Part shown: positions 29,868 to 55,748 of the stretch, piece after piece | Layout of the letters: each line of letters begins with the position of its first letter | How positions within the stretch are numbered: the first letter of the stretch is position 1 | DNA from: Nannocystis bainbridge | GTDB lineage: Bacteria > Myxococcota_A > Polyangia > Nannocystales > Nannocystaceae | Assembly (NCBI RefSeq): GCF_028368995.1 | Contig: NZ_JAQNDL010000002.1 | Span: 417,724 to 481,723, forward strand | Reading direction: 5' to 3' | Length of the DNA: 64,000 nucleotides | Position numbers and translations under genes: made by a program | The notes under the pieces: model-generated | Told to the model about the DNA's origin: nothing | Seen by the model: only the letters and a program-made list of their open reading frames with translations | Databases searched by the model: none

Positions 29868-30189
29868 AGCGAGCGAGGCGAACGACGAGCGCGCAGCGCG
29901 GGGCACCACCGCCGACGGTATCACGTCAGCGACTGCGAGCGTCCTGACTCCCCTCGGCACGGAGGCCGCCGAAGCGAGAGGTCGCCCGCGCGACCGCCTG
30001 CCCCTCGATCGGCGCCACGCTGGGCGGGAGCTCGGGGCACTGGTTCACGAAGCAGGTCGTCGCAGGCCACCACGGCGGGCCAGGTGTCGTCGTTCGCCTG
30101 CTGACCGCGCCCCGGGGGCGGCCGTCGACCTGATCCCGGAAACAGGCGCGACCGCTGGTGGGTGCCCGGGCGATGGTGTATGGGCGAGC

Positions 30190-39403: not shown

Positions 39404-39729
39404 GATGGCGCGCTTCGGCGCGACCGGCCACCCGTAGGCGCTCGAAGCGCGACCAGTTGCTCGCGCTCGGCGGTGTGGTCAAGCACCTCGCGCTCGATGA
39501 GGACGAGGTGGCCGAGTCGCGGGCGTGCGCGAGGCGCGGGCCGACGGGCCGGGGTTCGGGTAGTCCGACGATCCGGGCGTGTGCAACGAATGGCTCGAGA
39601 GGCTCGATCTGGCGGCCGAGCCGTCGAGCGAGGTGATCGAGGCGTCGCGGCTCGAGTGCGAGGCCGAGCTGCTGGGGTTCATCGCCGAGCTCGAGGCCGG
39701 GGCCTGAGCGCCGGGATCGGCGAACCTTC

Positions 39730-40035: not shown

Positions 40036-41751
40036 TCAGAGCTCGCGGAGCGTCGCACCCAGCCGCACCTCACCCACCGCGGCGTGCCGCCCGACCACGC
40101 CGCGGATCGCCGCCTCGTCCGCCACGGTCGCCTCGACCGCGACGTTGATCTCGTCGAGCCGTTCGGTGAACGGGCGCGTCAGCGCGACCTCCAGCAACGT
40201 GTCCCAGGGCGCCGACGTCGGGGCCTTGAAGCTCTGCAGCAACCCGCGTAGACGGCCATCCCGGCGCTCGAACCACAGGTGAGCGATCGCTCCCTCGAGG
40301 TGAAAGTGCAGGATGACTTCTCGCAGTCGAGGCAGCGCGTCGAGCACCGGCAGCCACACCGCGAGGTCGTGCGGACTGGCCAGCACCTCCACCGCCTCGA
40401 GCTGCGCCGCCAGCCGCGACGCCCAGAACCAGGCGGGCGCCGGCTCGTACGGCCGGCTCCCCCGCGCCAGGCGGTCCTTGTCGGTCTCCGTCGCGTCGAA
40501 CGAGAGGGCGCGCAGCCGCGTCAGGGCGTGGACCGCCAGCGCGTCGGCCCACGCCTTGCGTGCCAGCCTCGGAGGCGACTGGACCCTGCGCCCTTCCCAC
40601 CAGTTGTCCACTTCGTGGGCGAACGCCACCTCGAGCGCGACCGGCTCGTCCGTGCGGGCCAGCGCGGACAGCCCCGCGCCGTCGAGCGTCGCGCGCAGCA
40701 ACCTCGGCAACTGCTTCGCAGACAAGGGCATGTGACCGCTGGCGAGCTCGATCAGGTCGGGCGCCCGCGCCTCGAGGACCGCCCGGTCCGCCGGCAACTC
40801 GAACCCTCCTGCACGCACCGCCCAACCGTCGGCCGTCTGCTTCCACAGCGGCTCGCGCGGCGCGGTGCTCTGCCCGAGCGCCTGCGCGAGCGCCTGCGCG
40901 TAGCCCTCGGACGACGCGATCACCCGTGGCGTCCGCGGGTGCGTCGGGGCGGGCGGCGGCGCATGCTTCGGGGCCGCGCGGGCGGCTCGCTTCGCCGGCG
41001 CTCGCGCCGGAGCGGGCGCCAGGTAGTTGACGTATTTGGTGGCGCCGGCGAGCAGCGCCCGCGCCGTGCCCGGGAGGCCCGCGACGCTGGCGAGGTGGAG
41101 GCACATCGCGGCGTGCTCGTAGCACCCGCCCTCGAGCGCCGTCGAGAGGTTGGCCCGCAGGAAGCGCTCGGCGAGCCCCACCGGATCCGGCGCACCGTCA
41201 GCGAGGGCGAGGGTCAGCTCGGCGACCGTGCACGCCCGGGTCGGCTCGAATTTCTTGTCCGGCAAGATCCTGGTGAGGAACGCCCGAGCCTGCTCGAACT
41301 TCCGGGCGGCGCAGGCCAGCTCGATTACTGGGAAGACGTTAAACTGCAGCGATGGCTTCTTACGCGCCGTGGTGACGGCGAAGCAGCGCGCCTGGGCGGT
41401 GAGCGCCCGCTCGAACCAGAGCACCTGCGGCTCGCTGGTGGCGATCCATTCGGCCAGCGCGAGGGTGCGGAGCCCCTGCGAGACATGGAACGGACCGAGC
41501 GACGCGGTCAGCGTCGTGATAGCGACGTCGCTCGAGAACGCCGCCGCGAGCACACGCCGAACCATGGCCAGCAGCTCGACCGCCCGCGGGTCGTCCCCGA
41601 GTCCGATGATGTGCGCGAGGGCAACATCACCGAGCATAAAGCTCCAGAACCCCGGGTCGAGCGGTTGCCCGGCGAGCTCGCGCGCGTGGGCGAGGCCGTC
41701 GTACCTGGCGAACGCGTCGCGTCGTTGCCCGGGGTCGAAGGCGCGCGGCAT
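40036..41751 (-). CDS. Large hypothetical protein (572 aa)
   Basis: Long ORF with helical, non-artefact composition (MPRAFDPGQRRDAFARYDGLAHARELAG...). No family recognised. Start uncertain: the ORF extends 44 codons upstream. Confidence 0.6.
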   Translation of the reverse strand: MPRAFDPGQRRDAFARYDGLAHARELAGQPLDPGFWSFMLGDVALAHIIGLGDDPRAVELLAMVRRVLAAAFSSDVAITTLTASLGPFHVSQGLRTLALAEWIATSEPQVLWFERALTAQARCFAVTTARKKPSLQFNVFPVIELACAARKFEQARAFLTRILPDKKFEPTRACTVAELTLALADGAPDPVGLAERFLRANLSTALEGGCYEHAAMCLHLASVAGLPGTARALLAGATKYVNYLAPAPARAPAKRAARAAPKHAPPPAPTHPRTPRVIASSEGYAQALAQALGQSTAPREPLWKQTADGWAVRAGGFELPADRAVLEARAPDLIELASGHMPLSAKQLPRLLRATLDGAGLSALARTDEPVALEVAFAHEVDNWWEGRRVQSPPRLARKAWADALAVHALTRLRALSFDATETDKDRLARGSRPYEPAPAWFWASRLAAQLEAVEVLASPHDLAVWLPVLDALPRLREVILHFHLEGAIAHLWFERRDGRLRGLLQSFKAPTSAPWDTLLEVALTRPFTERLDEINVAVEATVADEAAIRGVVGRHAAVGEVRLGATLREL

Positions 41752-42381
41752 GACCTTGCAGTACCGCGACGGCCGCGGCGTGAAAAGCCCCGCGTCGCGG
41801 CCCGGCCGGACTTCTCCGACGCGGTGATCGACCCCGACATCGAACCCTCGCACCGACGCTGCGTCCCAGTGAAGCCGTCGCACCGGACCGTCAACGGGCC
41901 GGCGATCCCGCGCGCCTCTTCGCCGAGGGATCGGGTCGGCGAGCCCAGATCACCACGACGGCCCGCCGGCGCAGCCCGAGCGGCGGGCCCGACAGGCCGA
42001 TCACGTCATCGAGCTCTGCCGGGAACGTCAGCGTCACCAGCAGCCAGAAGGCCCGGCCGGCAGGGCGTCGAACACGGCGTCGAGGATGCGCTCCTGCAAT
42101 CCCGTCGACGGTTCCTCGTCCTCGCCGTCGTCCGCCTCGTCCACACCAGCTCGCTCTTGCCGGCCCCGCCGCGCGCCGTCATCACCCGCCCGGGCGGCCC
42201 GCTCGCCAGCGCGAACGCGCGGAGGTCGTCCTCGGGGCGGTGTCGACGGCCTGGTCGTGATCCACGGGCCCCTCGAGCGCGGCCACGCCGGCCTCACGCG
42301 CACGGCTGAAATCATGACTGACGCACGGATCTCATTCGCATCTCTTGCGCCGCTCTCGTGGCGGCGCTTATAGAGGGCTCC

Positions 42382-42500
42382 GACCGCTCTCCAGGCCAGT
42401 CCACGACCAGGCCAGTCCACGACCCAGAAGCCCGTGACCCAGAAGCCCGTGACCAAGAAGCCCGCGACCAGGAAGCCCGCGACCAAGAAGTCCGCGACCA
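42382..42500. repeat. Short tandem repeats: 2x ccaggccagtccacga, then 6x ~15 bp (cmrgaagcccgygac)
   Basis: Direct reading. The second array encodes the KKPxT repeats of the SUKH protein. Confidence 0.8.
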
Positions 42501-43111
42501 GGAAGCCCCGGGAAATGCAGGTCAAGGAAACGACGGACGCTAGCCGGACCGCTCGTGCTGAACGAATGAGGACAGCCCTCGGGCGGATCAAAGCGTGGAT
42601 GCGCTCCAACAACGCCGAGGACATTGTCGACAACCTCGCACCACCAACGTCCGACGAAGAAATTGCTTCGTGCGCGAAAGCCCTCGGTTTCGCGGTACCC
42701 GATGATTTGCGTGAGCTCTGGTTGCTTCACGGCGGTCAGAACCTGGAGAAGACACATCCGTTTCTGAATTCCCACGACCTTCTCAGCCCTGCGAGGGCGG
42801 CGAGCGTGCGCCACGATTTCTTGTCGACGCTCCCGACGCTCCGTGATGCGCCCGACGACCTCGTCGAGGTGACGGAAGAGGAGCTCGCGTCGGACGAATG
42901 GTTGACGATCGGCAAGATCGGCCGATGGGACGTATGGGTGATTTGTGCCCTTACGGGACGCCTCTTCGGCTCGAGTCCCGACTATCCGCAGTTGTACGCA
43001 ATCTCAGGCTCGCTGCTCGATTGGCTCGAGACCTTCGCGGAGGGGGCGGAGAACGGCGAGTACGAGGTGACTCGATTGGGGAAGTCGTGCTTTGTGTCCC
43101 CGATCCTCTGA
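42434..43111 (+). CDS. SMI1/KNR4 (SUKH-1 superfamily) immunity-like protein with N-terminal Lys/Thr-rich tandem repeat region
   Basis: ASCAKALGFAVPDDLRELWLLHGGQN...WLTIGKIGRWDVWVI is the SMI1_KNR4 core. N-terminus (PVTKK PATRK PATKK SATRK) is encoded by 15-bp tandem repeats at 42420-42500. Lower-GC gene. Alternative start at MQVKETT (42512). Confidence 0.7.
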   Translation: MTQKPVTKKPATRKPATKKSATRKPREMQVKETTDASRTARAERMRTALGRIKAWMRSNNAEDIVDNLAPPTSDEEIASCAKALGFAVPDDLRELWLLHGGQNLEKTHPFLNSHDLLSPARAASVRHDFLSTLPTLRDAPDDLVEVTEEELASDEWLTIGKIGRWDVWVICALTGRLFGSSPDYPQLYAISGSLLDWLETFAEGAENGEYEVTRLGKSCFVSPIL

Positions 43112-43239
43112 TAGCGCGCGATTGCGGCGGCATGGCGTCAGGTCGCCGAGGGCCTGGACGCCCTCCCGCGCCAAGCCTCGGGGCCGCGGGTCGGCGGGCC
43201 GTCGTGCCAGGGACAGCCCGCCCCAGGGCGCCGTGCCGC

Positions 43240-43989
43240 TCACCGCCCGCAGAGCCAGTCGAGGATCGCGGCGTCGCCGAGCACGTATCGGCCGTGCGAG
43301 CTTGCGGTGAACCACAGGTTGTTCGCGGCGTGGAGCAGGATGCCGGGGAGGATCGATCCGGTGCGGAGAAAGACCCAGCCGAGCGCCAAGGCGACGAGGA
43401 GATAGCCCGTGTTCCAGCCGTAGCCGTAGAGGTAGTGCAGGACCACGAACACGCCGCCGCCGATCACCAGCGCGTGTGAGTCCTTGAACCGCTCGCGGAG
43501 TGCGGAGAGCAGGATAGCGCGATACATGATCTCCTCGTAGAGCGGCGCGAGCAGGACCATGCAGATCGTGTCTCGCACGAACACGGGCCACGGATAGACC
43601 ACCGGGGCCCATAGTGCCCGCTCGCTCAGCTCGCACACAAGACTCGGGAGTACGAGCCGCCCGAGCACCAGCACTAGCGCCGCTGCGAAGATCGCTACGG
43701 CCGCGGCCTTGGCGAGCCAGCGCAGCGCCGGCCCGTGGCGCGCCACGGCAAGCCCGAGCTCGGGCGCACTGAACCAGCCGGAGCGGAGCGCCCACGCGAG
43801 GGCGACACCCGCGATCAGACAGCGGCCGGCTTGGTAGCCGGCGTAGAACCCGGCTTCGCCATCGACGAGGCCGAGTGCCCCGAGGGCCGGGATGTGCGTC
43901 GCTACCCACGCGAAGTCGGCGAGGATCGTGGCGACGACAAGCGCCCCCCGCTTCTGCGAGGGGCGCTGCGGTGGCGTCGGCGCGTCCAT
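43240..43989 (-). CDS. CPBP-family intramembrane glutamic metalloprotease (CAAX protease self-immunity family)
   Basis: Multi-TM protein with the EEIMYRAIL (EExxxR) motif, FxxxH and LHAANN motifs of CPBP/Abi. Confidence 0.8.
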   Translation of the reverse strand: MDAPTPPQRPSQKRGALVVATILADFAWVATHIPALGALGLVDGEAGFYAGYQAGRCLIAGVALAWALRSGWFSAPELGLAVARHGPALRWLAKAAAVAIFAAALVLVLGRLVLPSLVCELSERALWAPVVYPWPVFVRDTICMVLLAPLYEEIMYRAILLSALRERFKDSHALVIGGGVFVVLHYLYGYGWNTGYLLVALALGWVFLRTGSILPGILLHAANNLWFTASSHGRYVLGDAAILDWLCGR

Positions 43990-44004
43990 GCCGACACGAG
44001 TCTA

Positions 44005-44418
44005 TCAGGGCTTGCCGCCACCGGGCGGCTGCGTCCCTGGGTTGTTCGGGGCGCCGCCGGAGTGCCCGGAGGGACAACTGCATCCGTCCACCAGCGCAGC
44101 GGCGGCGATCACGACGACCACAAGGAACCAGACCGCCGACTTCTCGGTCTCGATCGCCAGATCACCGAGCCCTTGCCCGAGCTGTTCGTCAGTCAGCGGC
44201 TCGCCGTGAATCGGGCAGGGGAGCGCGACATGGGCGGTGATGAAGCGGTAGCTATCGAGGATACGGGTTTGTGTCACGTCCGCGAAGCTGTCGGGCGTGA
44301 GCGCGGCGAAGCGGCTCCGCTTGTGCGCGGCGAGGCGTTCCGAACGGGAGTCGTCGGGCTTTTTGGCCGCGGCGAGGCTGCGCTCGAGGATCTTGTTCAA
44401 GGTGGCGAGTGCGATCAT
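44005..44418 (-). CDS. Hypothetical protein with C-terminal TM segment
   Basis: Excellent SD GGAGGAAG 7 nt before ATG (MIALATLNKILERSLAAAKK...). C-terminal WFLVVVVIAAAALV hydrophobic segment. Confidence 0.55.
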   Translation of the reverse strand: MIALATLNKILERSLAAAKKPDDSRSERLAAHKRSRFAALTPDSFADVTQTRILDSYRFITAHVALPCPIHGEPLTDEQLGQGLGDLAIETEKSAVWFLVVVVIAAAALVDGCSCPSGHSGGAPNNPGTQPPGGGKP

Positions 44419-44629
44419 GGTTCTCTTCCTCCGCATGGTTCAGGGCCGAGGCCGCCACGCCGCGATGTTGGGCGGGCTCCTCCACGACATCGGCTATCAC
44501 GGCGCCACGCGCGGAGGGACGCGCGGCCGATGGTGTACCGCGTTAGATCGACAGGGCGCCGTGCAGGTTGCCGCGGAGCTTTACCCCCGGCGGGTGACAT
44601 CGCCCGCCGTACGCGCTAGCCTGGACATC

Positions 44630-45712
44630 ATGCGCCGTCTCGCGCTCGCCGCTCTCGCCGCTCTCGCCGCCTGCAACAACGGCGAAGGGCCAGGGCCAGG
44701 ATTCGGCTCGAGCATCACGACCGCGCCGCAGGGCACAAGCTCGAGCGGTGACGCGTCGACGTCGACGTCGACGTCGACGTCCACCAGCTCGGCGGAGGAC
44801 TCGGCCGCGGCGTCGAACAGCTCCACCAGCTCGGCGGGCTCCGGCATCCCCGACGGCGGTACGCCGCCGGACGGCGGCGACAAGCCGCCGCCGGGCTGCA
44901 TGGGCAAGGTCGATCTGGTGTTCTCGATCAGCTCCTCATGGACGATGGAGAACCAGCAAGAGGCGCTCAAGGCGAGCTTTCCCGGCTTCGTCGATACGCT
45001 CGAGACTGCGTTCGCCGGCTTCGACTATCACATCCTCGTGCCGCGCCAGTATGGCCCTCCGTGGGGGATCCCGGGCTGCGAGGCCGACTGCGTCGACACC
45101 TGCCCGACAGGGCCGGAGGACTACCCATGCGGGGCGGTACTTGAGCCCTGCGACACGGTGAAAGGCGCAGGGATCACGTTCTCTGCCGGGTGGGACGCGA
45201 GCAACGAGCGGTGCGACCTCGCTGGCGGCCACCGCTACATCACCGCCGGTCAGCCCGATTTGACCGGCGCCTTCACTTGCGTCGGGTCGGTCGGCACCAG
45301 CGGCGCCGGGGTGGTCGCTGAGGCCGCCGTCAGCGCACTGAAGGACGAGATCAACGCCCCGGCCGGTTGCAACGCGGGCTTTCTCCGCGAGGACGCGCTC
45401 CTCGTGGTCGTCGCCATCGATGACGTGTGGGACGAGCTAAGCGAGGGCACGCCCAAGGACTGGGCCGACGCGCTGGTCGGGGCCAAGGGAGGCGACGCGG
45501 ACGCGGTGGTGCTCCTCGTGATCGCTAACGATATCGACGATCCGGACAGCCTCTGTGGCTACGAACCTGGCGGCGAGCACAGGCTTCGCACGTGGACGCA
45601 GCTCCTCCCGCATTCGGTGTTCGGGTCGATGTGCGTCGACAGCTACGATGGGTACTTCGCCGACGCGGCGGCGAAGATCAAGGCGCAGTGCGACGTATTC
45701 GTGCCGCAGTGA
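44630..45712 (+). CDS. Hypothetical lipoprotein with Ser/Thr-rich linker
   Basis: MRRLALAALAALAAC lipobox. (ST)n linker encoded by tcgacg repeats 44755-44790. Cys-containing globular domain (GCEADCVDTCPTGPEDYPCG). A fragment of this gene is duplicated at 33930..34090. Confidence 0.7.
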   Translation: MRRLALAALAALAACNNGEGPGPGFGSSITTAPQGTSSSGDASTSTSTSTSTSSAEDSAAASNSSTSSAGSGIPDGGTPPDGGDKPPPGCMGKVDLVFSISSSWTMENQQEALKASFPGFVDTLETAFAGFDYHILVPRQYGPPWGIPGCEADCVDTCPTGPEDYPCGAVLEPCDTVKGAGITFSAGWDASNERCDLAGGHRYITAGQPDLTGAFTCVGSVGTSGAGVVAEAAVSALKDEINAPAGCNAGFLREDALLVVVAIDDVWDELSEGTPKDWADALVGAKGGDADAVVLLVIANDIDDPDSLCGYEPGGEHRLRTWTQLLPHSVFGSMCVDSYDGYFADAAAKIKAQCDVFVPQ

Positions 45713-45716
45713 GCGT

Positions 45717-47387
45717 CTACGGGTAGAGCCGCAGCGCGAACGCTCGCGGCTGCAGCTCCGCGAACTCGCTTCCCGCGATCGAAACATGACCCCACGGACC
45801 GATGGCCAGCCCCGGGGCGTCGTCAGGTCCGTGGCCCGGCCCATCGCGGACGACGTCCCAGACGTGCGCGCCGAGCGGGCCAGGGATGGCGAAGATCCAC
45901 GCGTCCATGTCGGTGGCCGGCTGCTTGCGCGAGCCGGCGATGATGATCTTGCCCTCGCGATCCTCGCCGATCGCGTAACCAATCGCGTCGCTTCCTGGCG
46001 TGGGCTCGACTCGCACGGGTCCGGCCTCGCCCGCGGCCGAGAACCAGCGCGTGAGCACCTGACGGATCGTGCCCTTGTTGCGGCCCCAGCCAACGGTCAC
46101 GAACCCGCCCCCCCGGAGCGGCGTGACCCCCATCGCGCCGTCCTCCGTCAGTAGCTCGCCGGGCGAGGTCCACTCGTCGAGGGGCTCTCCCGCGAGCGAG
46201 TACCGCAGCACGACCGCACGCCGATAGATCTTCGTGTCTCCGCCCTTGATCAGGCGCTCGCCAACGACGATGACTTCATCGTCGACGATGGCCACGCCGC
46301 GGCCGATCTCGTCCAGGTCGTTCGGAGGGTCATCGGCGAGAGATGCGGCGAAGGGCGCCTCGTGGAGCAGCGCTCCGTCCTCCGCGGCCAGCCACCAGAC
46401 CCGGAGGTCATGCGTGCCCGGCGATATCTCGATCCCGCCGACGACGATCACGAAGGGACCCGCGACCGTGACCGCGAGCGCTTTAGTCTTGGGGTCGCCC
46501 GTCGCCTTCCACTCGAACGACAACGGATCGTCGAGCCACACCTTGGACACCGCCCACGTCGGCCCGAGTTGCGTGGACGCGACGAACACCGCGCCGTCGT
46601 CGCTGGCAGCGATCGCCGGTCCGCTCCCCGCGGACGCGAGCGCGACCTTACCGAGCGCGACCGGCCCCGCCTCGAGCTTGCCCGTGGCGCCGTCGATCTT
46701 GACCGCGATCGCCTCGAGCCCCTGTTGGGTCTCATAGAAGCCCGCGGCGGCGATCGCCGCGTCGTCGAGTAGCGTCGCGCTCGTGAAGCCGTTGATCGGC
46801 CCGGCCTGCACGTAGGGCGGCCAGACGTCGGTGCCGCCGGGCGCGACGTCGATCGTCAAGTCCTTCTCGGCTTGCCCGCTCACGCCGTCGGCGGCATGCG
46901 CGACAGCGCGGATCGTGTGCGTGCCGTCGCCGGGGACGTTGTCCGACGTCACCTCGAACACGCAGACCGGATCCCCCGGCGTCGCGCCGAGCGCGAGGGG
47001 CACGTCGCCGTCGAACACGTCGATCGCCGCCACCGGGCGCGACGTCCACACCGCGACCTGCACCTCGCCGACCTTGTCCACCGACGTCGGCGTCAGGAAC
47101 ACCTCCACGTTGACCGGCAGGGCCTTTCCGTCGTCGGTGGTGGTGCCGGTCGCGCCGTCGCTCTCTGTCCCGCCGTCGGTCGCCGACGCGCTCACCGACG
47201 TCGCCTCACCGATCGTCGCGCTCGCGTCTGCGGTGCTGGCCGTCGTGCTCGCCGGGCTCGGATCGTCGGCGGTCGATCCGCTGGTCCCGTCGCTGATCGG
47301 GTACGCCCCCCCTTGCTGCAGGAGCTGATCGAAGTCTCCCGCGCAGGCAGCGAGGATGACGGCGGACAGGAGGCTGCGGCGGACCAT
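45717..47387 (-). CDS. Beta-propeller repeat lipoprotein with N-terminal Ig-like region (paralog family)
   Basis: MVRRSLLSAVILAAC lipobox. Thr/Ala-rich linker. Blades with VFVAS / IVVGG / VIVVGE / IIIAGS motifs. Confidence 0.7.
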   Translation of the reverse strand: MVRRSLLSAVILAACAGDFDQLLQQGGAYPISDGTSGSTADDPSPASTTASTADASATIGEATSVSASATDGGTESDGATGTTTDDGKALPVNVEVFLTPTSVDKVGEVQVAVWTSRPVAAIDVFDGDVPLALGATPGDPVCVFEVTSDNVPGDGTHTIRAVAHAADGVSGQAEKDLTIDVAPGGTDVWPPYVQAGPINGFTSATLLDDAAIAAAGFYETQQGLEAIAVKIDGATGKLEAGPVALGKVALASAGSGPAIAASDDGAVFVASTQLGPTWAVSKVWLDDPLSFEWKATGDPKTKALAVTVAGPFVIVVGGIEISPGTHDLRVWWLAAEDGALLHEAPFAASLADDPPNDLDEIGRGVAIVDDEVIVVGERLIKGGDTKIYRRAVVLRYSLAGEPLDEWTSPGELLTEDGAMGVTPLRGGGFVTVGWGRNKGTIRQVLTRWFSAAGEAGPVRVEPTPGSDAIGYAIGEDREGKIIIAGSRKQPATDMDAWIFAIPGPLGAHVWDVVRDGPGHGPDDAPGLAIGPWGHVSIAGSEFAELQPRAFALRLYP

Positions 47388-47402
47388 CGTTGCGAGGGTA
47401 CC

Positions 47403-47420
47403 ACGCGCGGGTCCGCGCGC
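47403..47420 (-). terminator. GC hairpin CGCGCGG-GT-CCGCGCG between two co-directional minus-strand genes (putative intrinsic terminator, no U-tract)
   Basis: Perfect 7-bp stem, 2-nt loop. Located 62 nt after the stop of 47482..48396 and just 5' of the 45717..47387 start. Confidence 0.3.
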
Positions 47421-47481
47421 GAAGTCGAGGCGCCACGTCAGGCGCGTTGACGACGTTTCATTTCTCCCAAGGGAGTAGACC

Positions 47482-48396
47482 CTAGAAGCGCCCGAAAATC
47501 GAAAGGCCGGCGCCCTGGGGCCCCCCGTAGGGCGCAACGCGGGCCCGGTCCGTCGTCGGGCGCAGCTTGCCGCGGGCGACCATGCCGACGCCCACAGCCC
47601 CGAGCACCGCCGCCGAGATTGCGAGGCCGATCTTGGCGCCCCGCGTCCACGTCCCCACGGATCCGAGGTCGCTCATGCGCTGCGCCTGCTCCGGGGTCCG
47701 ATGGCCCGCCTGTTCAATCTCGGCGATCAACGTCTCGAGGTCATTGAACGCCCCGGCGCGGCGGACCTGCACGGGGATGATGGCGAGGGCGGCGAGGGCG
47801 GCCGTGCCAAGCAGGACCCCGCCGGCGATCGTCAGGCCGTTGGCGCGCGGAGGCGTGCGGCCCGTCGTCGGCGCTGTCATCGCGGGCGAAGGTTCGCGCG
47901 CCTGCTCGGGTTCCGCCACGGGGCCGGGCTTCGGCTCGGATGTCGGCTGCACGCAAGGGGGCGCGACGAAGCGCGCGTCACCGCGTGCGGCCGCTTCAGC
48001 GTGCGAGGCGAGGCCGGCGCGCGCTTCGTCGCGGAAGTCCGTCGCCTCGGGCGGCGGGGTGTCCGTGCGCGCGAGGACCCGCTCCGCGGTGGCGAGTAGT
48101 TGGCACAGGTGCGCAGCGTCGTTCGTGCGCTGGTACGCGACGCGGCGGGCGGTCACGGCGAGCGTGAGCAGATCGCCGAGGTCCTTGACGTCGGACGTGT
48201 CCGCGAGTCTCGACTCCACCAACTCGGCAGCGGTGATGAGCCGCTCGAGCGGCGCGAGGTTGTCGGTGGTGATCGTCGGGTCGGCCGCCGTGATCTCGTC
48301 GTTGATCTCGGCGTTGCTGGCCGTGGGCGACAGCGGCGGCGCCGCCAGGGTGGGCCCCGCAAGGACGAGGGAGAGCAAGGCGGCGCGCGCGGGCAT
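47482..48396 (-). CDS. Hypothetical secreted/membrane protein
   Basis: Signal MPARAALLSLVLAGPTLAAPP. Two C-terminal hydrophobic segments. Divergent from the kinase gene. Confidence 0.55.
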   Translation of the reverse strand: MPARAALLSLVLAGPTLAAPPLSPTASNAEINDEITAADPTITTDNLAPLERLITAAELVESRLADTSDVKDLGDLLTLAVTARRVAYQRTNDAAHLCQLLATAERVLARTDTPPPEATDFRDEARAGLASHAEAAARGDARFVAPPCVQPTSEPKPGPVAEPEQAREPSPAMTAPTTGRTPPRANGLTIAGGVLLGTAALAALAIIPVQVRRAGAFNDLETLIAEIEQAGHRTPEQAQRMSDLGSVGTWTRGAKIGLAISAAVLGAVGVGMVARGKLRPTTDRARVAPYGGPQGAGLSIFGRF

Positions 48397-48514
48397 GGGT
48401 TCGTTGTACCACCACGCCGGCCGAACGTGCTCCCGGCGTGGGTTGAAAGGGGGAGGATCGCGGCGGAACGAGGGGGTGAAGCGCGGTCGGGTGTGGGACG
48501 AAACGGGCCTGAAA

Positions 48515-51112
48515 ATGGCAGGAAAGGCATTTAGGCGGTCTTTCTCGCCTGGGGCTGTGGCACTCTTGGCGACGATGGACAGCCCCCTCACCCCACGCTC
48601 CGGGCCCAGGCCGACGTGGCCCATCTACAAGGAAGTCGGCGCCGATTTCATCGGCGAGCTGCTCGACGGGCGCTACAAGATCGTCCGGCGGCTGGCGAAG
48701 GGCGGCATGGCCCACGTGTTCCTGGCCAAGGATCTCACGCGCAAGTGCTACGTAGCGATCAAGCTCCTGCGCGCGTGCAGCCCGGAGGCGCACCGCCGGT
48801 TTGCGGTCGAGGCGGAGATCCTGAGCAACATTCGGCACGAGAACATCGTGCGCGCGATCGCGTTCGGTCACACGGCCGACGAACAGCCCTACATCGCGCT
48901 CGAGCACCTCGACGGCGAGACCTCGTCACAGCGCCTCGCTCTCGGCCCGCTCCCGTGGCGTGAAGTGGCCGAGATCGGCATTCAGATCGCCGACGCGTTG
49001 CACGCCTTGCATCGCGTCGGCGTGATCCACCGCGACGTCAAGCCCGACAACATCATCCTGACGAGAGATGCCGATCGCAGCGCGGCGAAGCTGATCGACC
49101 TCGGCCTGGCGAGCGTCGGGGTTCCGTTCCACGAGGCCCAGGACGCGCGCTTTACCCCGCCCGTGATCCGCCACAAGACCCAGCTCGGTCGGGCGATCGG
49201 CACTCCCGACTACCTGCCGCCGGAGGCGGGGCTCTGCGACGCAAATCCGCTCCTGGACGTGTACCTGCTCGGCGCCACGCTCTACCAGCTCTGCACACAG
49301 CTCCTGCCGAAGCTGGCGGGGCTCCGGCCGATCCACGAGGTGAACCCCAGCGGCGAGGCGCCAGAAGACCTTTCGCGACTTCTCTGCTCGGCGCTCGAGC
49401 CCGAGGTGAGTCATCGGCTACCGTCCGCCGATCACCTCCGCCGCGGACTCGAGGCGATCCTCGCCGCGCACCCGAAGACGCCGCGCCGAGAACACCTGTT
49501 CGGCGGAAGCTTCGACCGATTGGAGGTCCTCGGCGTCGGCGCGAGCGCGGTGGCTTTCCGCGCCTCCGATCGTTGGCTGTCACGCGAGGTCGCGCTCAAG
49601 GTGCTGCGCGACGCGAAGCCGAGCGAGGACGACGCGATTCGCTTTCACCGCGCGGCGAAGATCCTGTCCGCGCTGCGGCACCCGAACATCCCGCAGATCC
49701 ACCACTACGGGATCGAGGGCCGAGAGGCGTTCACGATCACGGAGCTGTGCCCCGGCTCGCCGGCGACGGACGTCGCGGGGCCCGACAAGCACCTGCGCCC
49801 CGACGAGGTAATCGCGGTCGGCCGCCAGCTAGCGAGCGCACTCATGGCCGTGCATGGGGTCGACGTCGTGTATCGCGACCTGCACCCGGGAAACGTCTTG
49901 ATAGCACGCGGAGAAAAGCCGCAGGCGTGGATCTTCGACTTCGACCACGCGCAGGTGTCACCCGCGTTCTACGCCCACCTGACGGAGCGGTGGGCGACGC
50001 CGCCGGAGGCGCGCGTGGAGCCCAAGAGCGAAAAGCCGCTCCGAAACATGGACTACGCGGCGCCGGAGGTTCGCAGCGGTGGGGCGTTCACCGTGGCGAG
50101 CGACGTGTTCGCGCTGGGCCTGTTGCTGTATCGCCTGCTCACGGGCTTGCGCCCGTTCCCGCCCGGCGGCAGCGAGCCCGTACCGGCGCGCAAGGTGTGT
50201 CCCGAGTGCCCGCCCGGCCTCGAGTCTTTGCTCATCGCCATGGTGAACCCGAGCCCGAGCGGCCGGCCCGCGCTGCGCGCCGTGGAGGAAGCGCTCGCGG
50301 CGGAAGAGGAGGAGCTTGAAGCCGTCAAGCGCGAGGAAGCCGAGGCCGAGCAGGAAGCCGCAGCGGCCGCGCCGATCGTCCCGATCGGGCCGACCGTTTC
50401 GAGCGCGACGCCGGAGAGCACACCCGTTGTGAGCGCTGCCGCGGTCGAAGGGCCAACACCTTCGCAAGCGGCCACCGCCGCTGCAGAAGCGCCGCCCGTC
50501 GACCTACCGATCGGCACGTCGGGCGTGACTCGCATCGCCCAGCGCGGCGGCATGTGGGGGCTCCTCGCGCTGATGTTTGCGATCGCGGTTGGCGTCGTCG
50601 TGGGACGCGTGACCGCACCGGGCGATGTGGCAGAGGCGGGGCTGGCGACGCCGCTGGCGATGCTGCCGCCCAGCACGGAAGAGAAGCCGCGCACTTCGAC
50701 CGGCGACGGGCCGGCCAAGCCAGCGACCGCCGAGGTCGCGCCGATGAAGTCGTCGCACGAGGGGACGTTGCCGAAACCAGCCCAGACGACCGACACGACC
50801 GGCAAGCGAACACCGCCGCAGCGCCGCACACAGCCGTCGCCGCGTGGCGCGGTGACGACGGCAGAAGCCACCACCGCAGCACAAGGCGCCCTGCAAGCGC
50901 TGCGCGTTTGCAAGGATGTTCCCGGCGCCATTACGGCCGACCTCGACGTCGTTCGGGGCAAGGGCGCCGTGGTCACGCTCAACGCCCGCGCGCCGGCTCC
51001 CGATGATCCGCGCTACCCCTGGCACGCCTGCGCCCGCGATGCACTCGAGCGTGTGCGCTTCCCGGTGAGCGAGATCGCCGGGCGCGTGCGTGTCCGCCTC
51101 CCGCTCGAGTGA
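48515..51112 (+). CDS. Tandem Ser/Thr protein kinase: two kinase domains (second degenerate/pseudokinase-like), TM helix and extracytoplasmic C-terminal domain
   Basis: Domain 1: YKIVRRLAKGGMAHVFLAKD...VAIKLL...HRDVKPDNIIL...DLGLA...GTPDYLPPE. Domain 2: FDRLEVLGVGASAVAFRASD...VALKVL...YRDLHPGNVLI...DFDHA (HRD->YRD, catalytic-loop Lys->His, DFG->DFD). Then Ala/Pro-rich linker, TM (MWGLLALMFAIAVGVVVG) and a C-terminal domain. Start could alternatively be the ATG at 48575 (MDSPLT). Confidence 0.85.
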   Translation: MAGKAFRRSFSPGAVALLATMDSPLTPRSGPRPTWPIYKEVGADFIGELLDGRYKIVRRLAKGGMAHVFLAKDLTRKCYVAIKLLRACSPEAHRRFAVEAEILSNIRHENIVRAIAFGHTADEQPYIALEHLDGETSSQRLALGPLPWREVAEIGIQIADALHALHRVGVIHRDVKPDNIILTRDADRSAAKLIDLGLASVGVPFHEAQDARFTPPVIRHKTQLGRAIGTPDYLPPEAGLCDANPLLDVYLLGATLYQLCTQLLPKLAGLRPIHEVNPSGEAPEDLSRLLCSALEPEVSHRLPSADHLRRGLEAILAAHPKTPRREHLFGGSFDRLEVLGVGASAVAFRASDRWLSREVALKVLRDAKPSEDDAIRFHRAAKILSALRHPNIPQIHHYGIEGREAFTITELCPGSPATDVAGPDKHLRPDEVIAVGRQLASALMAVHGVDVVYRDLHPGNVLIARGEKPQAWIFDFDHAQVSPAFYAHLTERWATPPEARVEPKSEKPLRNMDYAAPEVRSGGAFTVASDVFALGLLLYRLLTGLRPFPPGGSEPVPARKVCPECPPGLESLLIAMVNPSPSGRPALRAVEEALAAEEEELEAVKREEAEAEQEAAAAAPIVPIGPTVSSATPESTPVVSAAAVEGPTPSQAATAAAEAPPVDLPIGTSGVTRIAQRGGMWGLLALMFAIAVGVVVGRVTAPGDVAEAGLATPLAMLPPSTEEKPRTSTGDGPAKPATAEVAPMKSSHEGTLPKPAQTTDTTGKRTPPQRRTQPSPRGAVTTAEATTAAQGALQALRVCKDVPGAITADLDVVRGKGAVVTLNARAPAPDDPRYPWHACARDALERVRFPVSEIAGRVRVRLPLE

Positions 51113-51140
51113 GCGCCCAGGACGTTGTCTTGACGTAGCG
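51089..51140. repeat. Copy A of a ~52-bp direct repeat covering the last 8 codons and stop of the kinase gene (copy B at 52350..52401). 26-bp perfect core GCGTGTCCGCCTCCCGCTCGAGTGAG
   Basis: Direct comparison: 26/26 identical, then ~65% identity for a further ~26 bp. Confidence 0.8.
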
Positions 51141-51192
51141 GTCGCAGGCGCCGCAGAGGAAGAGGTCTTGGGGTAGAGCGCCGAGTGTTAGC

Positions 51193-51681
51193 CTACTTGA
51201 GCGTGCATTCCTTCAACATCACATTGCCGAACTTGCCGTCGCAGCGGCAGGCCACGGTAACGTCTTGTCCCTTCGAGAGATTGGCCAATTTGGGCAAGGA
51301 CGCATCGTCGAAAAAGGCCTGAACACCCAAGATGTCAAACTTCCCGCCGGTCGACAGGGCCACGTACGGGGTGTCGAGAAGGTCCTTCCCGACGTTGTCG
51401 ACCTTCCCGCTCACTTCCAGGAGCTTGTCCTTGAAACGGTTGTCGGCCGCGATTTCGTTCTTTTCGTACGCCTCGAACAGTTCGCGAGCTGTGACGCGCG
51501 CATCGATCTGCGGCGCTTTAGGAGGCTCAGGGGCTGAAGAAGGTCTTGCGGCGGACGCTGCGGACGTCGAAGTCGTCGGCGAGGTGTTCTTGTCCCTGCT
51601 GATGATCGAAATTACGAACAGCGCGCCGACGCCAACGAGAAGGTAGAAGCCGATGCCGCGCTTCTTTTCTTGATTTGCCAT
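51193..51681 (-). CDS. Membrane-anchored OB-fold (tRNA_anti-like family) protein. Low-GC gene
   Basis: N-terminal TM (IGFYLLVGVGALFVISIIS). C-terminal TARELFEAYEKNEIAADNRFKDKLLEVSGKVDNVGKD...YVAL pattern of the tRNA_anti-like OB-fold lipoprotein family. Confidence 0.7.
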   Translation of the reverse strand: MANQEKKRGIGFYLLVGVGALFVISIISRDKNTSPTTSTSAASAARPSSAPEPPKAPQIDARVTARELFEAYEKNEIAADNRFKDKLLEVSGKVDNVGKDLLDTPYVALSTGGKFDILGVQAFFDDASLPKLANLSKGQDVTVACRCDGKFGNVMLKECTLK

Positions 51682-51972
51682 GTCACGCCACTAACACGGC
51701 TGCCAGTAATGCCGCCACCATCTCGTGCATTACGCCGTTCTCGGGCGCCGATGCTTCAATGAACGCCGTTGGCCGAAGGCGCACTGAGGCGGGGCCGACG
51801 TGGCCGGCGACGCTGGCGGTGTTGCTCGGCACGCAGATGTTGCTGGCGCGCAGGCTTTGCGTGCGTGGCTGTTTCTCAGCTCGGCCTCGCGGCTCGCCGT
51901 GTTCCGACGCCCACTTGCGGGCTCACGGATCCAGCCTTACGGTCGCGGCTCAACCCGGCGAAAGGACACAAC

Positions 51973-52143
51973 ATGAGCAAAGGCGGCGGCAGCAAGGGCG
52001 GTGGCGGTAGCGGGACCAAGGGCGGTGGCGGTAGCGGGACCAAGGGCGGTGGCGGTAGCGGGACCAAGGGCGGCGGCAATTGGCCGAGCACCACGGGGAA
52101 CCCCTCGGGTGGGGGCAGAGGCAACAACCCTCCATCAAAGTAG
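51973..52143 (+). CDS. Gly-rich small repeat protein (56 aa; 3x GGGGSGTKG)
   Basis: ATG preceded by AAAGGA. Encoded by three perfect 27-bp tandem repeats (ggcggtggcggtagcgggaccaagggc). Could be non-coding repeat DNA. Confidence 0.3.
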   Translation: MSKGGGSKGGGGSGTKGGGGSGTKGGGGSGTKGGGNWPSTTGNPSGGGRGNNPPSK

Positions 52144-52349
52144 CAGGCGCAGCCACCAGGAGAGCGAGGTCTTCCGCGGAAGGCCCCGCTCTTTTGTTTG
52201 GCGCCGAGTACTGCTCGCCGCGTCAGGTGTTGCTCGGCGCGAGCACGGGGTCGGCGGGGCGAGTTTGTCCTGGACGTTGGGGCGAAGCTGTTACTCGACG
52301 TGCAGCGACACGGAGCTGTTGCTCAGCGCGACGGGGCAGAGTTTTTTGG

Positions 52350-52401
52350 CGTGTCCGCCTCCCGCTCGAGTGAGTGCTCAAGAGCGCGTCTTGACTTGGC
52401 C
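52350..52401. repeat. Copy B of the kinase-3'-end direct repeat, fused at its right side to an IS5-family transposase fragment (52380..52480)
   Basis: See copy A. Downstream sequence WQQIAAALELSTGELGREPSHRPPRAKS (minus strand) matches the transposase fragment at 53876..54100. Confidence 0.75.
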
Positions 52402-52541
52402 CGCGGCGGCCGGTGACTCGGCTCGCGCCCTAGCTCGCCCGTCGAGAGCTCCAGGGCCGCCGCGATCTGCTGCCACGACGCGGTCCGCTGGGTCCTACAC
52501 ACCGGACGATCCGATCCGTGGCCGTAAGGCGAGGGTCGCGG

Positions 52542-53612
52542 TCAGGCTGGCGCGCGCGGTAGATCAACCGTGAACACGCACCCCGTGCCGGGCACGTCGC
52601 GCACATGGATTGCGCCGCCGCATGCCTGAACGCCCTTCAGACTGATAGCGAGTCCGAGCCCCAGCCCGGCCTTGTTGGCGGATCGCTTTTCGAACGGTCG
52701 GAACATGTCCTCGACGGCCCCCGGCGGCAGTCCGCCGCACTCGTCCTGGACGTCGATCAGCACCCGTTCGTCCGTCGCACGGGCGCAGACCGTGATGTGA
52801 CCGTGGGGGCGGGTGAACTTGAACGCGTTCTGAACCAGGTTAGCGACGACAGAAGCGAGGATCTGGTGGTCGGCCTCGACCACGACGTCGCATGCGCCGG
52901 GATCGACCGAGAGCTTGATGTCGTGTTCCTTGGCCTCGATCGTGGCGACGACCTCGATCTCCTCGATCAATTCTGCGACGCGCACGCGCTCCGTCGTCCC
53001 GATTCCGGCACCAAGGCGAACCTCGGCGAGCGTGCGATCGATGAGATTTCGCATTCGTCGCAGGCTGCGTCCGAGCAAGGTGCCGGTGCTCCCCTGGATC
53101 CCGACGCGGCCGTGCATGAGAGCTTCGAACGTCAGCATCGCGGTGGTGAGCAGGTTGCGCATCTCGTGCGCCAGGAATCCAAGGTGCTCCACACTGGGAC
53201 CGCTGGTCGAGTCGCGCTGGTGCTCGTACTCGGTCACGGCCTGCGCGATGGCGTCGTCGAGGCAGCGGTTGAACGTCTGGAACTCTTCGGCGGTGATGGC
53301 GACACCACGCTCATCCGCCAACTCCGTGACGCTCTGGCAGATGCTGCCATAGTCGTGGACGACTTGGCCGACGGTCAGTCCCATTTGTAGCAGTTCCCGC
53401 CCATGGACGGCCGCGCTGGCGATGACGTCGTGGTGACCCGCCGCGCGCTCGCCCTTCTCGGTGCGCAAGATCGTGACGAGTTGGTCCAGGAAAAAGGGCA
53501 GTCCGTTCCCCATCTCGGCCATCGTGGGAATCGGAACTGAGCGCGCGGCGATCTTCAAGCACGAGCGCTCGAGGATCTCCTCTCGGTGGGTGACGATGAA
53601 CTCGTGCAGCAT
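52542..53612 (-). CDS. Cytoplasmic sensor histidine kinase (no TM; orphan, no adjacent response regulator)
   Basis: H-box HLGFLAHEMRNLLTTA. HATPase_c N/G boxes (VANLVQNAFKFT, DECGGLPPG, GLGLGLAI). The ORF's first codon is TTG at 53633; ATG at 53612 chosen. Confidence 0.85.
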   Translation of the reverse strand: MLHEFIVTHREEILERSCLKIAARSVPIPTMAEMGNGLPFFLDQLVTILRTEKGERAAGHHDVIASAAVHGRELLQMGLTVGQVVHDYGSICQSVTELADERGVAITAEEFQTFNRCLDDAIAQAVTEYEHQRDSTSGPSVEHLGFLAHEMRNLLTTAMLTFEALMHGRVGIQGSTGTLLGRSLRRMRNLIDRTLAEVRLGAGIGTTERVRVAELIEEIEVVATIEAKEHDIKLSVDPGACDVVVEADHQILASVVANLVQNAFKFTRPHGHITVCARATDERVLIDVQDECGGLPPGAVEDMFRPFEKRSANKAGLGLGLAISLKGVQACGGAIHVRDVPGTGCVFTVDLPRAPA

Positions 53613-53875
53613 ATTTTGGGAGTATTGCCCCAAGCATTCGGTGCCTGGGTGTTCCGAAGCTTTCTGTGGCCGCCGCGTGCGTTTGTTTTGCGCTTGTCCG
53701 GCGCGGCCCTATGCGGCTTTGCCGCGGCACCGAGCGGCCGCCCGCCCAGATTGCCTTCGTCCTGGACGCGCGACGGTGGCGTGCACGACGCTCGTGCACG
53801 GCCCTCCGGGGCCGCGCCCCCCCCCGACACGTAGTCACAGGAGCGCGGCGGATACACGAACGGCTAGACCGGGGC

Positions 53876-54100
53876 TGCCGCCTCGACCGCCGTGACGTCG
53901 ATCGGCGTCGCGTTGCGGTGCGACTTGGCCCGCGGGGGCCGGTGGCCCGGCTCGCGCCCGATCTCGGCCGGCGGGAGATCCAGGGCCGCGGCGATCTGCT
54001 GCCACGTGCCATCGCTGCACCAGCGCTCATACCAGCGCCAGCACGTGGTCGAGGCGCCATACTCCGCGGGGATCTCGCTCCACTTCGCGCCGGTGTGCAG
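53876..54100 (-). mobile_element. IS5/IS1182-family transposase N-terminal fragment (DUF4096-like). Second shorter copy at 52380..52480
   Basis: VLHTGAKWSEIPAEYGASTTCWRWYERWCSDGTWQQIAAALDLPPAEIGREPGHRPPRAKS matches the conserved N-terminal domain of IS5-group transposases. No DDE domain follows. ~85-bp nucleotide repeat between the two copies. Confidence 0.6.
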
Positions 54101-54103
54101 GAC

Positions 54104-55469
54104 TCAGCGGACCGCGTCCACCGTGCGGCGGAGGTCGATCCGGGGGCCGCCGCAGCGGCCGCGCGTGCTCTCGACCATCGCCTCGATCGCCTTCCACTGC
54201 GCGTCGCGCATCGGCTCGAACGGCGCCGGCGGGAGCGCGACGATCGGCTGCACCGCCTCCACGATCCGGTCCGTGGCCGTCTCGAGCGCCTGACGGAGGT
54301 AGTCATCCGCGAGGTGCGTGTAGCGCTTCGTGGTTCGCTCCTGCTTGTGGCCCAGCAACTTGCCGACCGTGCTGAGCGATGCGCCGCTCATGATCGCGTC
54401 GCTGGCGAAGGAGTGCCGGAGGTCGTGCAGCCGGACATCGGGGATCCCGGCGGCGGCGCGGATGTTCTCCCACGTGCGATTGATGCCCCGGAGGCGCTTG
54501 CCGTTCGGGGTACGCAGCACGTACCCCGTGCTCGGGTTGCCCGCCTGGTCGTGAATGTGCTTCAGGAGCGCGAGCACGCGGGCAGACACGGGCACCTTGA
54601 GCTGTCCCGTCTTGGTGTCGGGGATGTTCAGGAGCGAGTGTTGGAAGTCGACCATGGCCCACGTGAGCGTCAGGATCTCGTCGCGACGTCGGCCAGTGAG
54701 CGCGAGCAGGTCGATCGCCCAGACGCTCACGAGCTTGACGTGCCCCTTGCGTCCGGCGGGGATCTTGAGCCCGACGAGGATCACCGCGTGCACGCGCTGG
54801 CGCTCCTCGGGGGTCAGGAAGCGCTCGCGCTCCGGAATGGCGAAGCGCTTGACCTTGTGCGCCGGGTTCCGCAGCTCGGCGAGCTCCCAGTCTTCGATGA
54901 TGCGCGTGTAGAGACTACCGATCACGCACAGGACGTAGTTCGCGACGGAAGGGCCCCGCACTTTCTTGAGCTTGGCGTGCAGCGCCGCGATCTCGGCCTT
55001 CTTCACGGTGCGGAAGTCGCGATCTCCGATCGTCGGCAGGATCACCGTCTCGAGGTGTTCCTTGTAGTTCACCGCTGAACCAGGCTTAAGGTGCACGTCG
55101 ACGTAGTCACGGATGAAGCGCTCCACCAGCTCGCGGACCGTCGTGATCTGGGATGGCCGCGATTCCGGCTGTTCCAGTCGAGCGGCCTTGTCCGCGGCTT
55201 GCTGGCCGGATTGTTCATCGGCGCTCGCGCTGACGGCCGCGTTAGTGAGCAGGACAGCGGCACGCCGCCGCGCCTCGTCAATGGACAGTGCGGACCCGAG
55301 CAGTCCGATCTTTCTCCCGGTGGTCCTTGCCGTCCAAGCGGTATCGAACCAGCGCGACTTTCTTCCCCGTAGGCAGAACCCGCAAGATGAAGCCCGGGAG
55401 CGCTTCGCAGGTGACTTCGTACATCGTCGCGCGAGGCTTGCACTCGCGCACGAACGCAGCAGTGATCAT
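54104..55469 (-). pseudogene. int: P4-type tyrosine integrase, frameshifted (N-terminal arm-binding domain in one frame, core-binding and catalytic domains in another)
   Basis: N-terminal YEVTCEALPGFILRVLPTGKKVALVRYRLDGK (P4-integrase N-terminal domain) in frame A stops at 55278. Frame B continues with TTGRKIGLLGSALSIDEARRRAA...RELVERFIRDYVD...HDLRHSFAS...LGHKQERTTKRYTHL (catalytic R..HxxR..Y). A 1-nt shift near 55300 is required to join them. No tRNA gene found adjacent. Confidence 0.75.
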
Positions 55470-55748
55470 GAACCCCTACCTTCCTACCCCTAGTTTTCGA
55501 GACAAATTCGAGCCAAGCTAGAGCGACTTAAGACCTGTCCGAAAGTGCACAATGTCCTGTGCACGGCCGCGAAGGGCGGTTTCAGGACAAGCGTATCACA
55601 TTGGTGATGTGATAGGTGCGATGATTCCACCGCGGGCGTGACGAGGCCCAGCGGGAGAGCCTGTCCCGAAGGACACGTATTCCGATGAGACCCGCGGCAC
55701 ACCGTGCCGGCACTATCCATCGATCTGTCCCGAAGGACAGCCTACGTC

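Follow-up and report, generated by a model that had tools for sequence, protein, structure and literature searches.

An orphan SUKH-1 immunity-type gene and an NTPase relic as probable accidental neighbours in a recombination-prone region of Nannocystis bainbridge

Why should an immunity-type gene stand without a toxin beside a piece of broken coding sequence? The question is raised by a 64-kb stretch of the Nannocystis bainbridge genome (the window), in which a gene of the SUKH-1 (SMI1/KNR4) family at 42434-43111, with an array of 15-nt tandem repeats at its N-terminus, follows a decayed segment at 41884-42433. An earlier note, made from the sequence alone, took the two to be the relic of one toxin-immunity cassette or, in softer wording, an orphan immunity gene. 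Our results favour the orphan gene. The best reading, to which we give a probability of roughly 60%, is that an orphan SUKH-1 immunity gene lies beside an unrelated nucleoside triphosphatase (NTPase) relic, that their adjacency is accidental, and that the setting is a recombination-prone accessory region.

The longest open reading frame (ORF) of the SUKH-1 gene (42434..43111, plus strand) begins with GTG and encodes 225 amino acids. Its product matched the Pfam family PF09346 (SMI1_KNR4, SUKH-1) with an E-value of 4.9e-8 and a score of 34.1 bits, where the gathering threshold is 25.4 bits; the matched stretch (42644..42943, plus strand) aligns residues 71-170 with positions 1-92 of the 125 in the profile. 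With this match the predicted product is confirmed as a member of the SUKH-1/SMI1-KNR4 family, as the earlier note had it, and an identical protein is held by RefSeq as WP_272087612.1, 'SMI1/KNR4 family protein [Nannocystis bainbridge]'. Alternative starts on the same strand are GTG at 42449 (the RefSeq start, giving 220 amino acids), ATG at 42515 (198 amino acids) and ATG at 42566. The protein matched no NCBIfam model, a library expected to hold any named SitI immunity families, and phmmer against PDB sequences returned no domain match, only an insignificant similarity (E 6.6) to a histone H2B tail. An AlphaFold2 model built from a 6-sequence alignment reached a mean predicted local distance difference test score (pLDDT) of 53.9, too weak for a fold search; this low-confidence model places helices first, then beta strands and a C-terminal helix, an order compatible with the SUKH alpha+beta fold.

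Close relatives of the protein comprise some ten distinct sequences in four clusters, and every one that can be placed taxonomically belongs to Nannocystis; a further cluster (P0005/P0019), at 35% identity, comes from JGI metagenomes. Pairwise comparison of the 198-codon core with two orthologs, spanning three species, gave ratios of nonsynonymous to synonymous substitution rates (dN/dS) of 0.22-0.36 at dS values of 0.14-0.21. Judged from these rates, the gene is functional and kept by purifying selection. Its composition looks foreign: GC content is 0.608 in the core, and 0.75 at third codon positions (GC3), against 0.70-0.76 and 0.88-0.90, respectively, in neighbouring genes.

What the window shares with other Nannocystis genomes at this place is a single block of about 0.8 kb, the SUKH module (42330..43126, plus strand), which consists of a leader, the repeat array and the ORF. 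Its boundaries were defined with blastn and MAFFT; nucleotide identity is 88-92% inside, and the flanks are unrelated. Homology extends over 42376/42407-43121 in Nannocystis sp. RBIL2, 42338-43126 in an N. pusilla draft genome, 42320-43139 in the complete N. pusilla genome and 42329-43126 in the metagenome contig L013. Past the SUKH stop codon conservation continues for only about 10-28 nt. Upstream of the array, a leader at 42344..42390 (plus strand), kept in four of five contexts, can be read as TTGCGC-N18-TATAGA with a GCGCCGC/GCGGCGC hairpin and is a possible promoter or operator; a consensus promoter scan did not flag it, and the promoter and terminator scans flagged none. An integron cassette and a passenger of an insertion sequence (IS) or miniature inverted-repeat transposable element were considered as carriers and rejected, there being no attC site and no terminal inverted or direct repeats at 42330/43126.

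Comparison of neighbouring genes within about 10 kb revealed four settings for this module. In the first (context A), found in Nannocystis sp. RBIL2 and the complete N. pusilla genome, a 291-aa gene lies upstream and two guanylate cyclases lie downstream, with a 639-aa gene inserted between the 291-aa gene and the SUKH copy in N. pusilla. The second (context B) is that of this window and of a 99%-identical sister strain (L011), where a 571-aa gene and the NTPase relic lie upstream. In the N. pusilla draft (context C) a TetR gene lies upstream, together with a lipoprotein relic truncated to 92 aa. In the metagenome contigs L013 and L014 (context D) the module is accompanied by IS91, IS3 and integrase genes, and directly upstream is a DUF2169 relic broken over three frames (L013 6400-6830, and L014), the fused translation of which matches Pfam at E 1.5e-27. 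Recombination thus appears, from the sequence comparison, to have put the module into at least four genomic neighbourhoods, none of which gives the SUKH gene a conserved housekeeping context.

The window itself records such exchange. Homology to the sister strain ends at 43151, 40 bp past the SUKH stop codon, and resumes at 55598; the 12.4 kb in between (43152-55597) are replaced by ~3.5 kb in that strain. The region around the SUKH gene is a recombination-scrambled accessory region. Note also that the ortholog in the complete N. pusilla genome (CP185339.1; L012 8600-9410) has an in-frame tail and an ATG start, and that its core is frameshifted at LRELW/LLHGG and annotated as a 133-aa hypothetical protein. 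Because of this core frameshift, the copy is probably a pseudogene in that strain.

No toxin gene was found that could pair with the SUKH gene. Among the GC3-supported ORFs of the whole window, Pfam detected no toxin, Rhs, PAAR, VgrG, CdiA, LXG, SitA-type or secretion-system family; the ORFs on either side of the gene matched no NCBIfam model for a toxin or a secretion system; and the called genes around its orthologs included no toxin family, the decayed DUF2169 gene being present in one metagenomic context only. A recognisable toxin gene adjacent or upstream, as expected of a toxin-immunity pair, is lacking both in the window and in the ortholog flanks, and the earlier statement that none adjoins the SUKH gene stands. 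An intact, selected and toxin-less gene in four variable contexts, one of them with IS91, IS3 and integrase genes, fits the softer, orphan-immunity wording.

The SUKH protein is most likely an orphan immunity protein. It would reside in the cytoplasm, bind the toxic C-terminal domain of a toxin from neighbouring bacteria and block it stoichiometrically. The toxin could arrive through a type VI system or through outer-membrane exchange (OME), the route known for the SUKH-family SitI1 of Myxococcus. The gene would then guard the cell against a weapon that is not encoded at its own locus. At type VI secretion effector loci, DUF2169 proteins serve as accessory proteins, and context D hints at a former type VI effector-immunity locus.

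We consider it unlikely that the protein has instead a non-immunity role, for instance in regulation or scaffolding, as a partner in the manner of yeast Smi1/Knr4, or within a candidate phage-defence system. Such a role would agree with the lack of a toxin partner in the window and in the flanks of the other contexts examined, and it draws weak support from a match of residues 45-124 to the PADLOC family PDC-M40A (E 1.9e-8) and from the JGI label 'cell wall assembly regulator SMI1' on a more distant homolog; that family, however, is a candidate one and the label is an automatic name. A patchy, context-hopping, low-GC and sometimes pseudogenised gene has the typical marks of a conflict gene and not those of a housekeeping regulator, and the documented roles of bacterial SUKH-1 proteins are those of immunity proteins (PMC3113570, PMC5562445, PMC12247911).

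If the SUKH gene is an orphan, what is the broken sequence beside it? The earlier note had seen 41884-42433 translate in pieces over three frames, with a Walker-A-like string, GGAGKSEL. All of these pieces proved to lie on the minus strand, where GGAGKSEL, LQERILDAVFDALPAG and LLVTLTFPAELDDVIGLSGPPLGL follow one another 5' to 3' in that order, in three frames. The pattern [AG]xxxxGK[ST] is rare: six-frame translation of the window yields 128,000 residues and only three instances, and ~0.03 are expected in the 550-bp segment. The GC content at one codon phase reaches 0.93-1.00 and the favoured phase switches several times across 41790-42330, the pattern expected of once-coding DNA with frameshifts.

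The three joined fragments were searched with phmmer, exhaustively, against 1.84 billion representative proteins, and their sole match (E 2.2e-5 library-wide) was WP_434421659.1, a 715-aa hypothetical protein of N. pusilla (P0012). Alignment by tblastn resolved the relic into three pieces on the minus strand. The first, LASGPPGRVMTARGGAGKSELVW (42141..42209), is the Walker A region; it is 70% identical to residues 106-128 of P0012 and contains the motif ARGGAGKS (42153-42176). The second, LQERILDAVFDALPA (42055..42099), lies in a different frame and matches residues 344-358 at 8 of 15 positions, and the third, LVTLTFPAELDDVIGLSGPPLGLRR (41966..42040), is in the remaining frame and 68% identical to residues 367-391. 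The pieces are collinear with P0012.

Nucleotide comparison with the N. pusilla locus L010 showed how the gene was broken. By blastn, window positions 42141-42201 are 85% identical over 61 nt to L010 8324-8384, and 41967-42088, within which the second piece falls, are 69% identical over 132 columns to L010 9041-9172. These blocks are 53 nt apart in the window as against 657 nt in N. pusilla (L010 8384-9041), so ~600 nt, including the Walker B and sensor region, have been deleted; an additional 10-nt deletion produced the last frame change, that of the third piece. The three-frame sequence contains stops, and the start and the C-terminal half of the gene are no longer recognisable. What survives is ~250 nt of a gene of >2.1 kb, namely the Walker A region and part of the post-core helical region. 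On this sequence evidence, 41966-42209 of the minus strand is a dead fragment of a STAND-type P-loop NTPase gene. It is an unannotated pseudogene, in which the Walker A string reflects true ancestry and not chance.

The earlier note had offered a degraded NTPase or toxin-associated gene. The three collinear matches bear out the NTPase; the toxin association falls away, P0012 having no toxin domain. The STAND assignment of the relic and of P0012 is made from the order of motifs, no family model having been passed: as read, P0012 carries the Walker A motif ITARGGIGKSALAW, a Walker-B-like FLIVIDGLE and LLATSR, in an order typical of STAND NTPases, and its alignment to AAA_16 (E 7.8e-4, 20.4 bits) stays under the gathering score of 32.6. 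P0012 matched neither NCBIfam nor PADLOC models.

Other searches with the relic were less informative. Pfam returned nothing relevant for the minus-strand fragments, singly or fused (we regard KorB_C at 0.017 and PLDc_N at 0.12 as noise), a word-indexed search of the fused fragments against 5.8 billion proteins had no match at E <= 10, and tblastx of the segment against the window and the loci fetched gave high-GC low-complexity noise only. An SPM-domain lipoprotein (L004) encoded upstream of a homolog of the 571-aa gene was tried as an ancestor and rejected, since it has no similarity to the relic. The only Rfam hit, to Guanidine-II at 42190-42237 of the minus strand, stayed below threshold (20.3 bits where 32 are required, E 0.44) and was taken as chance.

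P0012 deserves a remark of its own. The protein ends in an Arg/Pro/His-rich stretch, and its gene overlaps a 420-aa ORF with the remaining helical repeats and an unknown C-terminal domain, the two together occupying L010 8001-11334; this 'intact' relative may itself be frameshifted, or may be a miscalled gene of ~1,100 amino acids. The ORF at L010 10072-11334, which continues the N. pusilla STAND gene, has a counterpart in a second relic of the window at 39516-39698 (plus strand), 48% identical over 63 aa to its residues 147-209 and interrupted by an in-frame stop. Relative to the first, this second relic has the opposite orientation and is found across the 571-aa gene, which implies an inversion or a second gene copy.

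Could the gene be intact, and the three frames an artefact of assembly or sequencing? Indel errors are possible in high-GC long-read assemblies, but the segment 41894-42341 is base-for-base identical in the independent sequencing run of the sister strain, the main lesion is a deletion of ~600 nt rather than a homopolymer slip, and the surrounding genes are intact. Assembly error is rejected because an independent dataset has the same sequence, and we give an artefact practically no credence. Since the segment is identical in both strains, the relic is also older than their split.

That relic and SUKH gene are the halves of one former cassette, toxin- or NTPase-associated and with its immunity gene, is highly improbable, and here the earlier note's first proposal fails. 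The two are adjacent and divergent in N. bainbridge and its sister strain, but in every other lineage the SUKH gene has other neighbours, and even here ~120 bp of unrelated sequence separate the module edge (~42330) from the last relic homology (42209). P0012, with the motifs of an NTPase, lies in N. pusilla without a SUKH gene within 8 kb; it is located at 0.65 Mb and the SUKH copy at 11.08 Mb, ~10.4 Mb apart in the 12.2-Mb record as numbered. The relic is therefore best regarded as a chance neighbour of the orphan gene.

The remaining distinctive feature is the array of 15-nt repeats (42420..42508, plus strand; 5.9 copies and 89% matches by Tandem Repeats Finder), which encodes pentapeptide units of the form K/R-K-P/S-A/V-T (K-K-P-A-T type) in the N-terminal tail of the SUKH protein, the predicted stretch being KKPATRKPATKK. 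Its 5' edge carries a 16-nt duplication (CCAGGCCAGTCCACGA x2.1; 42391..42424, plus strand) that is absent in other species. The earlier note suggested that the array could vary in copy number, and comparison of orthologs showed that it does between strains: they have ~4-8 units, and the sequence of the units differs as well as their number, with MKPAT in RBIL2, KKPAT in ILAH1, KKSAS in the complete N. pusilla genome, and QKPVT with KKPAT in this window. Within one array, units resemble each other more than they resemble units of other species, which is the signature of slippage and homogenisation. Because the unit is a multiple of three, a change in copy number keeps the frame, and phase-variable (contingency) behaviour is not supported.

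Is the array translated? It is conceivable, at less than even odds, that it is not, and that the protein starts at ATG 42515 with 198 amino acids, leaving the array as a variable 5' leader that acts on expression only. This window's array contains no ATG, an AGGAAG motif precedes ATG 42515 by 9 nt, gene callers picked the 198-aa form in three assemblies, and indels outside the array put it out of frame in the N. pusilla draft. Against this stand the divisibility of the unit by three, the GC3 over the array, 0.96 in the SUKH frame as against 0.4-0.6 in the two others, and the state of the orthologs. Five lineages have an ATG at the front of the array (RBIL2, ILAH1, P0003, the complete N. pusilla genome and the N. 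pusilla draft), in P0018/L013 the start is an ATG upstream of it, and in six of the seven lineages, all but the draft, the array is in frame with the SUKH core. In P0003, moreover, the internal Met is replaced by Ile, so that this protein needs an upstream start unless a later Met is used. Translation of the tail is likely but unproven, and at least one strain can clearly do without the predicted tail. If made, it is probably disordered and rich in lysine, proline and threonine.

That such a tail is a functional, rapidly tunable appendage of the immunity protein we regard as a long shot. One variant of the idea would make it a histone-H1-like, polyanion- or DNA-binding tether by which the SUKH domain is concentrated at the nucleoid (or at RNA), the site of action of incoming nuclease toxins; adaptive tuning would then account for the differences between strains in repeat number and in the state of the start codon (ATG, GTG or out of frame). 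The variable basic tail is nevertheless the sole feature of this locus that might repay experimental work.

Several points weigh against the reading of this locus as an orphan immunity gene beside an accidental neighbour. No cognate toxin was identified anywhere, and because of this we infer the immunity role from the family alone; non-immunity roles also exist for SUKH/SMI1 proteins. The 571-aa protein and two lipoproteins have no recognisable domains, and one of them may be a novel toxin. The AlphaFold model is poor (pLDDT 54) and does not independently confirm the SUKH fold. No mechanism of mobility, in the form of terminal inverted or direct repeats or an attC site, was found for the module, and the differences in context could partly reflect general scrambling of gene order instead of movement of the module. 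The DUF2169 relic occurs in one context only and could be as coincidental as the NTPase relic. Finally, the predicted tail is out of frame in one strain, and in this window its array offers a GTG and no ATG.

The surroundings of the feature add further detail. The relic is bounded by the 571-aa hypothetical gene (40036..41751, minus strand), which lies outside the feature and matches no family. Its homologs are 79-86% identical and occur on several metagenomic and genomic contigs, each with other neighbours, and homology to the window stops sharply at 41790. Convergent with the SUKH gene is a gene for a CPBP/Rce1-like intramembrane protease (43240-43989, minus strand; Pfam E 1.2e-18) that is absent in the sister strain. 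Members of the CPBP/Rce1-like family are often annotated as bacteriocin self-immunity proteins, which by annotation habit makes two immunity-type genes neighbours here.

In three lineages a gene less than 7 kb from the SUKH gene encodes a Cys-rich lipoprotein that has a Ser/Thr-rich linker and matches neither Pfam nor NCBIfam families: at 44627-45712 (plus strand) in the window, at L003 17497-18600 (minus strand) in RBIL2 and at L002 9376-9654 (minus strand) in the N. pusilla draft. Between the RBIL2 and window copies identity is 44.5% (residues 86-367 of 367). The gene is intact in these two lineages, and in the N. pusilla draft it is cut to 92 aa with an inverted fragment beside it. Its recurrence points more to a neighbourhood inherited from a common ancestor than to a functional pairing. 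We considered this lipoprotein as a SitA-like polymorphic toxin and rejected it, since the RBIL2 alignment reaches the C-terminus and there is no toxin domain.

The strain-variable segment (43152-55597) carries the CPBP/Rce1-like protease, lipoproteins, a double-kinase Ser/Thr kinase gene and a histidine kinase; close to the right end is a gene for a tyrosine recombinase (54104-55465, minus strand; Pfam Phage_integrase E 7.4e-24). Searches found no tRNA genes in the window and no att-type direct repeats at the edges of the segment. The lower-GC part of the segment contains direct repeats at 51088-51139 / 52349-52400 (52 nt, 83%) and 52393-52477 / 53922-54006 (85 nt, 88%), together with a 24-nt tandem repeat at 51986-52077 (~3 overlapping 44-nt copies) that encodes Gly-rich units. 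Elsewhere in the window, 19290-19338 and 29780-29924 are 85-90% identical to L002 9760-9807 and 5977-6121, near the SUKH gene of the N. pusilla draft; they may represent small dispersed repeats or parts of genes that both have in common. The relic and the SUKH gene are bracketed by a perfect 15-nt inverted repeat, CACGACGGCCCGCCG / CGGCGGGCCGTCGTG at 41954-41968 / 43192-43206; it falls outside the conserved module, and by a rough estimate ~0.02 such pairs are expected by chance in this 1.6-kb region.

The finding is an ordinary one, and nothing in it overturns current understanding. It is a small, clear case of the persistence and movement of orphan immunity-type genes within large myxobacterial genomes: selection maintains a module of 0.8 kb with a single gene as its surroundings decay, which in different strains is illustrated by the NTPase, lipoprotein and DUF2169 genes. 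It also nominates a Nannocystis-specific SUKH protein, the cognate toxin of which could be sought near DUF2169 genes or among OME-delivered toxins.

How do these elements compare with known systems? The relic resembles STAND NTPases (AAA_16/NB-ARC-like, with C-terminal helical repeats) in its canonical Walker A motif, ARGGAGKS, and differs from working members in being a pseudogene fragment spread over three frames with Walker B and sensor deleted. Bacterial histone-H1-like proteins of the AlgP type have basic tails that are rich in lysine, alanine and proline and encoded by tandem repeats. The tail described here is like those of AlgP in its short DNA units for K-K-P-A-T-like pentapeptides, its high positive charge and its strain-variable copy number; it is unlike them in being attached to a SUKH domain, and DNA binding is here a possibility only. 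The distant homologs P0005/P0019, in which no such tail was found, also differ in this respect from the present protein with its repeat-encoded, lysine-rich N-terminus.

For the SUKH domain itself the precedents are closer. SitI1 of M. xanthus, encoded in the sitBAI1 operon, is a SUKH-family immunity protein (PMC5562445); isolated (supernumerary) SUKH genes were proposed by Zhang et al. 2011 to provide immunity to non-self toxins (PMC3113570); and divergent orphan SUKH immunity proteins of Bacteroidales bind and neutralise type VI effectors and are protective (PMC12247911). Unlike known SUKH-1 immunity pairs, the gene studied here has no toxin gene adjacent in any of its four contexts, and unlike the rAID genes it has no array of immunity genes and no adjoining recombinase, the nearest recombinase gene in the window being 11 kb away. 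With SitI1 and the orphan SUKH proteins of Bacteroidales rAID loci it shares the Pfam family PF09346 and the small, single-domain and predicted cytoplasmic form; with SitI1 it also shares a myxobacterial host (PMC5562445); and with known SUKH-1 immunity genes it shares a patchy, lineage-restricted distribution, a composition unlike that of its host and the isolation of the gene (PMC3113570).

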